Positions 10,965 through 11,256 of a DNA stretch of 64,000 nt are shown one piece after another (the stretch's first letter is position 1; each line of letters opens with the position of its first letter). The notes beneath the pieces were generated by a model. The model ran no database searches. It saw nothing but the letters and a program-made list of their open reading frames with translations, and was not told the origin of the DNA. The stretch is taken from the NCBI RefSeq assembly GCF_006345805.1, contig NC_043019.1, forward strand, positions 30,875,360 to 30,939,359, given 5' to 3'. The position numbers and the translations under genes are program-made. This DNA is from Octopus sinensis (lineage: Eukaryota).

Positions 10965-11256
10965 CTTCATTATTTACATTATTTACATTATTTACATTAT
11001 TTACATTTGATGGATATTTATCCTCATCTTGTTTGTTGTTAACACAACGTTTCGGCTGATATTTCCTCCAGCCTTCATCAGGTGTTTTGGGGAAATTTTG
11101 AACCAGGATTCTCATTCTTAAGGTATTTTTCAATGTTATTATTATTATTCAGGTCACTGCTTGGAATCGAACTACTATCTTGGGGTTAGTAGCTCGCGCG
11201 CTCTTAACCACTATGCCATATGTACATAATTCCTCATCTCTTAAATATAGAACAGT
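10965..11256 (-). mobile_element. Penelope-like terminal-repeat element carrying a tRNA-like head and a hammerhead
   Basis: Minus-strand arm 11220->10965 (A box, B box, hammerhead, (ATGTAAATA)n) abuts a plus-strand tail TGTACATAATTCCTCATCTCTTAAATATAGAAC; homologues at 45131-45735 and 62410-62910. Confidence 0.7.
11041..11086 (-). ncRNA. Minimal type I hammerhead ribozyme motif
   Basis: AACAC-CUGAUGA-A-GGCUG[GAGGAAAUAU]CAGCC-GAA-ACGU-U/GUGUU: intact core, 5-bp stem II, 5-bp stem I, palindromic ACGU in place of stem III. Confidence 0.8.

Follow-up and report, generated by a model that had tools for sequence, protein, structure and literature searches.

The window (the whole 64,000-nt stretch analysed here) holds a short minus-strand repeat in which the A and B boxes of a putative tRNA-like RNA polymerase III (Pol III) promoter precede a hammerhead ribozyme motif. 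What kind of element joins the two? The initial annotation proposed a non-autonomous Penelope-mobilised element or retrozyme that had gained its own Pol III promoter and could yield an RNA of about 180 nt. Our analysis points to a different answer. With a probability that we put at roughly 0.6, the repeat (copy 1) derives from the terminal repeat (pLTR) of an autonomous Penelope/Poseidon-type element, of which it is a short, dead copy, and its A and B boxes are likely the Pol III promoter behind most short copies of the family.

Copies of the family in the window

Three copies of the family were found in the window. Positions at the 3' end of the element refer to a 517-nt script-built consensus, and duplicate loci were removed before counting. 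The main arm of copy 1 (10971..11222, minus strand) is a 5'-truncated pLTR matching the script consensus at 89.5% over 10987-11222. It comprises, in order, a tRNA-like head that lacks about 9 nt of its leader, an AAT spacer, the start of an open reading frame (ORF), the hammerhead and 9-nt repeats; the tail is absent from this arm. The A box lies at 11208..11218 and the B box at 11163..11172 (both minus strand; consensus positions 250-260 and 295-304). An ATG at 11113..11115 (minus strand), which opens an 835-aa ORF in the family consensus, is located 70 nt 5' of the cut of a minimal type I hammerhead (11041..11086, minus strand; predicted cut 11046/11045). The hammerhead has a stem I of 5 bp (5' strand 11086-11082), the motif CUGAUGA from 11081 on the minus strand, a bulged A, a stem II of 5-6 bp and a palindromic 4-mer replacing stem III. 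Both boxes, the hammerhead and its cut site were found where the initial annotation had placed them on the minus strand, and the absence of a T4 terminator was borne out, with no T4 run on the sense strand of the copy 1 arm. The repeat tail described after the ribozyme is there as four 9-nt repeats (10971..11006, minus strand), but these are in-frame coding sequence of the next ORF start and not a simple tail; they form the first reverse-transcription start region of the family.

An inverted arm adjoins the main arm at 11220..11257 (plus strand; consensus 480-517, 94.7%) and consists almost entirely of the PLE (Penelope-like element) tail of about 30 nt. The flanks pair as a 10-bp target-site duplication (10961..10970 and 11258..11267). 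In copy 2, an inverted truncated arm without the tail (45133..45187, minus strand) faces a main arm that begins with the last endonuclease-domain codons (stop 45300-45302) and continues into the pLTR (45187..45470, plus strand). The tail of copy 2 follows at 45475..45735 (plus strand), interrupted at about 45499-45724 by an unrelated TTAA-flanked insertion of 226 bp, and its target duplication measures 9 bp (45124-45132 and 45741-45749). Inverted truncated arms facing a longer, tail-bearing arm had been described for both copies. The inverted truncated arms exist in both and the long arm of copy 2 bears the tail, but in copy 1 the tail sits on the inverted arm itself and the long arm has none.

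Deletions in the pLTR of copy 2 cover the predicted start and A box as well as the hammerhead. About 22 nt at 45310-45325, comprising a hairpin, the predicted start and the 5' half of the A box, are missing, and the ends are joined at a 4-nt microhomology; copy 2 has thus lost the hammerhead and half of the A box. Copy 3 (62407..62908, minus strand) consists of an ORF end and the tRNA-like head, is interrupted by an unrelated insertion of about 255 bp and stops short of the hammerhead. The additional family sequence noticed 5' of the tRNA part in copies 2 and 3 proved to be the 3' end of the family's own reverse transcriptase (RT)/GIY-YIG ORF.

Stems I and II form when the hammerhead stretch of copy 1 is folded (z -2.2; 5 of 200 shuffles were equally good). 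A loose hammerhead core pattern alone was at chance level in the window (3 matches against 1.9 expected). We took the motif as real because of the family evidence, namely thousands of genome candidates and a consensus with a complete core. Copy 1 is a short dead end-piece of an abundant protein-coding Penelope-like element.

Other repeats share the window. A very abundant tRNA-headed SINE flanks copy 1 at 11364-11780, occurs at about 20 other sites and is unrelated to the PLE head except for the boxes. The 226-bp element within the copy 2 tail has short terminal inverted repeats and is presumably a piggyBac-type MITE; four further copies were seen (7835-8058, 9701-9919, 26012-26237 and 42680-42875). 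Open frames at 13919-14671, 34601-35131 and 58340-59083 resemble what we take to be 3' fragments of LINE ORFs, and long low-complexity tandem arrays span 1519-3650 and 57625-60879.

Identity of the family

We retrieved 30 loci with the C-terminal stretch of copy 2, the translation of which we take to be a PLE-type C-terminus; they reach up to 1.5 kb further into RT-like sequence. One of the family loci (L061) is near full length and is laid out as inverted truncated pLTR, tail, ORF and pLTR. Copies of it with the same flanks (L061, L038-L040, L062), 98-100% identical, are spread over one chromosome and three small contigs and are either segmental duplicates or assembly haplotypes. A script consensus from 39 long copies has a single open frame of 835 codons; three database proteins share 72-75% identity with its product. 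One piece of the family ORF matched RVT_1 (E 1.3e-7), and the C-terminal part matched GIY-YIG clusters at 0.95 (209-213 shared features). On the family ORF, Pfam made no GIY-YIG call, a PDB sequence search with the family protein returned no matches, and the AlphaFold model was too poor to use (pLDDT 44). The layout of L061 and the ORF consensus supply the autonomous RT/GIY-YIG Penelope that the initial annotation had asked for. Scans for relatives yielded two weak, unrelated-looking loci in metagenomes and none in viruses.

On the 517-nt consensus, the stop codon is at 210-212, the predicted transcription start at G237, the A box at 250, the B box at 295, the ATG at 362, the hammerhead at 391-436 and the RT start sites at about 488 and 517. 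A single family thus carries, collinearly, the ORF, its stop codon, 25 nt, the tRNA-like head, the spacer, the ATG, the hammerhead and the tail. The ORF opens 5' of the hammerhead and continues through the hammerhead, the 9-nt repeats and the tail. Homology to relatives starts in the tail at residue 43 (P0014) and the next in-frame Met is at about residue 101, so ATG 362 is likely the start codon. The tRNA-like part is integral to the family and not an independent SINE insertion: 25 of the 26 loci with an ORF end extend beyond the A box, and the 26th is covered by a longer gapped match. Given this run-on, an RT plus GIY-YIG ORF ending 5' of the head, a near-full-length copy and an open 835-aa consensus, we assign the repeat, from sequence, to an autonomous Penelope/Poseidon-type family as its pLTR. 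The first proposal, of a non-autonomous element or retrozyme in its own right, does not fit a head that follows the end of the family's own ORF. A SINE, meaning a family without an ORF that begins at the tRNA head, was rejected since ORF-bearing members carry the head 3' of the stop codon.

The family shows the features of EN+ Penelope-like elements: one ORF with RT followed by a C-terminal GIY-YIG domain, pLTRs from partial tandems, an inverted truncated arm, a 30-40-bp tail at one end and, by sequence and fold, a minimal hammerhead in the pLTR. Its clade is probably Penelope/Poseidon. The clade criterion given in the available text of PMC8557442 is the lack of a zinc-finger linker between RT and endonuclease; this linker is absent from the consensus and present in a Neptune-type control family. 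Overall, the anatomy of the family is well supported.

The insertions have the Penelope-type architecture that had been inferred, with an inverted arm, a one-sided tail in 43 of 50 two-armed insertions and target duplications of 8-14 bp. Flanks shared at least 7 bases in 28 of the 50 two-armed insertions, compared to 152 of 2,450 mismatched pairs. A non-LTR retrozyme was rejected on two grounds, the coding capacity of the family and the presence of one direct tandem against 50 inverted pairs. The arms begin 3' of the cut and run through it, so a cleavage product of about 180 nt cannot be the template. Of 46 inverted pairs, 11 had arms that differed at the subfamily site N7 (30 were T/T, 4 A/A and 1 C/T), which is far above the per-site decay of 4-5% and below the approximately 16 expected from fully independent arms. 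As arms of one pair often come from different subfamilies, fold-back alone cannot produce these pairs. This bears on how inverted PLE ends form, and speaks for two RNAs on two nicked strands rather than fold-back.

We compared the family with known systems as described in the available portions of the cited reports. It most resembles the Anolis Poseidon element PAc (PMC11167929), which likewise has a single RT plus GIY-YIG ORF, a pLTR, a hammerhead overlapping the ORF start, a cut 3' of the ATG, a tail that lies within the ORF between two RT start sites, and use of both target strands. In Anolis, the cut lies 26 nt after the start codon with the tail within the ORF, and two RT start sites and both-strand priming were seen in vitro (PMC11167929). 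The difference is the tRNA-derived, putative Pol III part, which the accessible text on PAc does not describe. The hammerhead is like the minimal type I hammerheads of metazoan PLEs (PMC4209133) in its short stem I, long stem II, unpaired base before stem II, G10.1-C11.1 pair and palindrome replacing stem III. Those are mostly dispersed single motifs from truncated PLEs (PMC4209133), whereas here a tRNA-like head stands in front and a deletion recurs at the cut site. Metazoan non-LTR retrozymes (PMC7761336) also bear a type I hammerhead in a small repeat, but they are tandem and non-coding, with canonical hammerheads and abundant circles, unlike this coding family of inverted pairs.

Short copies and the tRNA-derived head

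Searches of the 2.7-Gb genome returned thousands of family candidates; these counts are unfit as copy numbers, as common words were skipped and a hammerhead 60-mer gave no matches. We therefore sampled 120 stretches of 10 kb at fixed intervals (1.2 Mb) and, before counting, removed five matches at a microsatellite edge (L111, L147, L151, L179, L212). Insertions were found in 10 of the 120 stretches. None reached 5' of 237 and none bore the ORF. The estimated number of insertions is approximately 20,000, with a wide margin (roughly 11,000-42,000). Most short copies behave in a SINE-like manner.

The excess of pLTR-only over ORF-bearing copies (10 versus 0 in 1.2 Mb), with starts at the tRNA head, would suit a separate tRNA-headed non-autonomous element or retrozyme that borrows PLE enzymes, the ORF-bearing copies being a minor or later fusion and the product an RNA or circle of about 180 nt. 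A fusion origin is plausible, given that the sequence just 5' of the predicted start resembles a short inverted copy of the head, and Sm-alpha provides a precedent for coupling Pol III and a hammerhead (PMC6765202). We nevertheless consider such an element quite improbable. One consensus covers short and long copies alike, the same subfamily variants occur in both, nearly all ORF-end loci carry the head, and three long copies (L251, L253, L271) have it in the upstream pLTR too. Inserted arms spanning the cut also mean that the 5' cleavage product is not the template, and monomer cleavage is unlikely for a hammerhead without stem III, going by the available text of PMC4209133.

The head aligned best with host tRNA-Arg(TCT) (z of about 8, against 6.3 for the next isotype, in a set of 27 tRNA sequences representing only 6 isotypes). 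At another locus (L292), six or more tRNA-Cys genes cluster within 3 kb. The A and B boxes stand at tRNA spacing in the consensus, and both are intact in 20 of 48 arms. The predicted start G237 is preceded by T, giving a Y/R start, and lies 13 nt 5' of the A box, a spacing that fits SINE promoters. Among 28 loci selected solely for holding consensus positions 246-305, 22 ended at 226-246, and the other six ran into the 3' UTR or ORF (ends at 216, 162, 70, 61, 50 and 42). Four of the 22 (226-227) were, by eye, over-extensions into an inverted arm. From the downstream truncation rate, 3-5% of ends would be expected in this span; the rate comes from partly length-selected arms and may be twofold too low, which leaves the contrast with 22/28 unchanged. 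Single-armed and tandem copies begin at 237-246 as well, in plain genomic flanks, and the unit boundary of one tandem copy (L014) is at 237. Summed contig depth from three other organisms showed no step at the predicted start, where the reference has private changes. Since head-bearing copies mostly extend no further than the predicted start, SINE-like copies are likely produced by the element itself, and Pol III use for the short copies is likely.

Could the pile-up arise without a promoter? The head might be a fossil capture in the 3' UTR of a Pol II-transcribed PLE that promotes nothing, with RT stalling at a hairpin or cDNA fold-back giving the pile-up. A hairpin does span the predicted start (z -2.4), and many junctions are head-to-head at a palindrome over the pile-up site. 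The head no longer keeps the tRNA cloverleaf fold, an Rfam search called neither tRNA nor hammerhead, and ARAGORN found no tRNA genes in 16 loci. PLE insertions are, moreover, generally truncated and inverted, according to the accessible part of PMC8557442. Neither circles nor defined RNA ends were seen: in three unstranded RNA-seq runs from a related organism, 5,249-7,578 of about 12 million reads mapped to a 541-nt copy, with equal depth in both directions and no pile-up of starts or ends, in data poorly suited to show either. This pattern fits passive transcription of many copies and speaks neither for nor against Pol III use. Against a fossil head stand the starts of single-armed and tandem copies in plain flanks, the frequent subfamily difference between head-to-head arms, the two boxes intact in the consensus with a Y/R start at SINE-promoter distance, and the absence of T4 from the unit. 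Taken together, a fossil head appears unlikely.

The T4 evidence is modest. On the sense strand of the 2,658-nt unit we counted 13 T3 runs but not a single T4 run; synonymous codon shuffles gave an expectation of 2.9 T4 runs (P 0.025-0.029) and base shuffles a P of 0.007. With P ranging from 0.006 to 0.029 depending on the null, and with one control family, the depletion is suggestive only. The Neptune-type control from the same genome had six T4 runs in its ORF (3.9 expected), and G4 runs were absent from both the unit and the control (about one expected). This control (L306-L335) is a second, younger PLE family, with copies 96-98% identical and a zinc-finger linker.

Under the preferred reading, Pol III would start at the G 13 nt before the A box and, without a T4 stop, continue through the hammerhead and the tail. 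The RT/endonuclease would nick both target strands, and cDNA would begin at either of the two sites 3' of the hammerhead. Two cDNAs, often made on two different RNA molecules, would produce inverted arms, one tail and a duplication of 8-14 bp. Those reaching the RNA 5' end would stop at the predicted start and could join through the short palindrome there. Short copies retaining both boxes may act as secondary, SINE-like sources. The promoter gain proposed initially therefore stands as regards the boxes, their tRNA likeness and a likely start, but the promoter part belongs to the autonomous element and not to a separate one.

Pol III promoters are usually ascribed to short non-autonomous elements (for LTR elements, PMC10886601). 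The TRIMp3 elements Cassandra, Helenus and Ajax similarly have a small-RNA-derived Pol III promoter inside the terminal repeat; they are non-autonomous LTR elements, whereas the repeat described here is that of an autonomous PLE, and the autonomous partners of TRIMp3 must use Pol II according to the available text (PMC10886601). Schistosome Sm-alpha/Sj-alpha also place a hammerhead after a Pol III promoter but are non-coding tandem repeats (review PMC6765202), whereas here the two parts form the terminal repeat of an element that codes for protein and inserts in the inverted manner of PLEs. The D. virilis Penelope promoter is reported as LINE-like and TATA-less (PMC2377424). Both combinations, Pol III with a hammerhead and Pol III heads in terminal repeats, are known from non-autonomous elements; here they would come together in the pLTR of an autonomous PLE. 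In the full-text literature searched, no PLE with a tRNA-derived pLTR was found (Repbase, Dfam and supplements may already list the family), nor did the accessible text of two cephalopod repeat papers (PMC13282606, PMC8967140) contain one. If the preferred reading is true, a PLE with a Pol III promoter in its own pLTR would combine an autonomous element and its SINE in one, and the excess of pLTR-only insertions, some 20,000 copies, would follow from this.

Hammerhead and cut-site deletion

The minimal type I hammerhead recognised in copy 1 has a complete core in the family consensus and is of the minimal type. It had been asked whether the core is better conserved than the rest of the consensus. 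No such excess was observed: among 102 arms, the core decays like its flanks (32/893, 3.6%, against 382/8,395, 4.6%, of non-CpG bases), as expected for dead copies. An intact core was found in 37 of 89 arms. Only the free position N7 varies commonly within the core, with T or A here and, in another organism, C making up 44% of the depth. Because N7 doubles as a third codon position, this variation is not necessarily a sign of selection on the ribozyme. Nor did 5' ends accumulate at the cut: of about 47 internal ends, 3 fell at 431-435, which is no excess.

A 3-nt deletion across the cut recurs in 25 of 178 arms. Comparison sites with an equal 2-nt microhomology had 0, 0, 1, 0 and 3 deletions, and a site with a 5-nt microhomology had 5. 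Any gap at this place is equally common in both N7 subfamilies (24/124 and 7/36), the deletion is linked to no non-CpG variant, and it is found in one arm only in 8 of 12 affected pairs; these observations argue against a DNA slippage hotspot or inheritance from a few cleavage-dead sources. Slippage or such inheritance, in place of RNA cleavage, is still a serious competitor to which we give somewhat less than even odds. The deletion lies in a short period-3 repeat beside a CpG, it is carried by both arms in four inverted pairs, and it keeps the frame while it would kill the ribozyme, which could favour such sources. Contigs of three other organisms contain it too, as do 551 of about 4,250 RNA reads; the latter originate from genomic copies and add no independent proof of cleavage.

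In the mechanism that we favour, the hammerhead, lying inside the ORF, is predicted to cut a fraction of the RNAs, in dimeric or protein-assisted form, and the RT would sometimes jump the nick on the 2-nt microhomology and lose 3 nt. A cDNA end at the cut that re-annealed 3 nt back on the upstream fragment would give the same product. The deletion is a possible scar of cleavage in vivo and the one indirect sign of it. A bolder version, which we regard as doubtful, is that the element as a whole is run by Pol III. The 2.66-kb unit would have been purged of T4, its transcription would be driven by the tRNA-derived head that the upstream pLTR provides, and its translation would do without a Pol II cap; in vivo, the hammerhead would switch the element off by removing the start codon, and the 3-nt deletion would record RT crossing the cut. 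For Anolis Poseidon, cleavage was dispensable in vitro and RNA-seq revealed no cut ends, according to the available text of PMC11167929. A deletion centred on the cut is a genomic signature that can be searched for in any PLE family.
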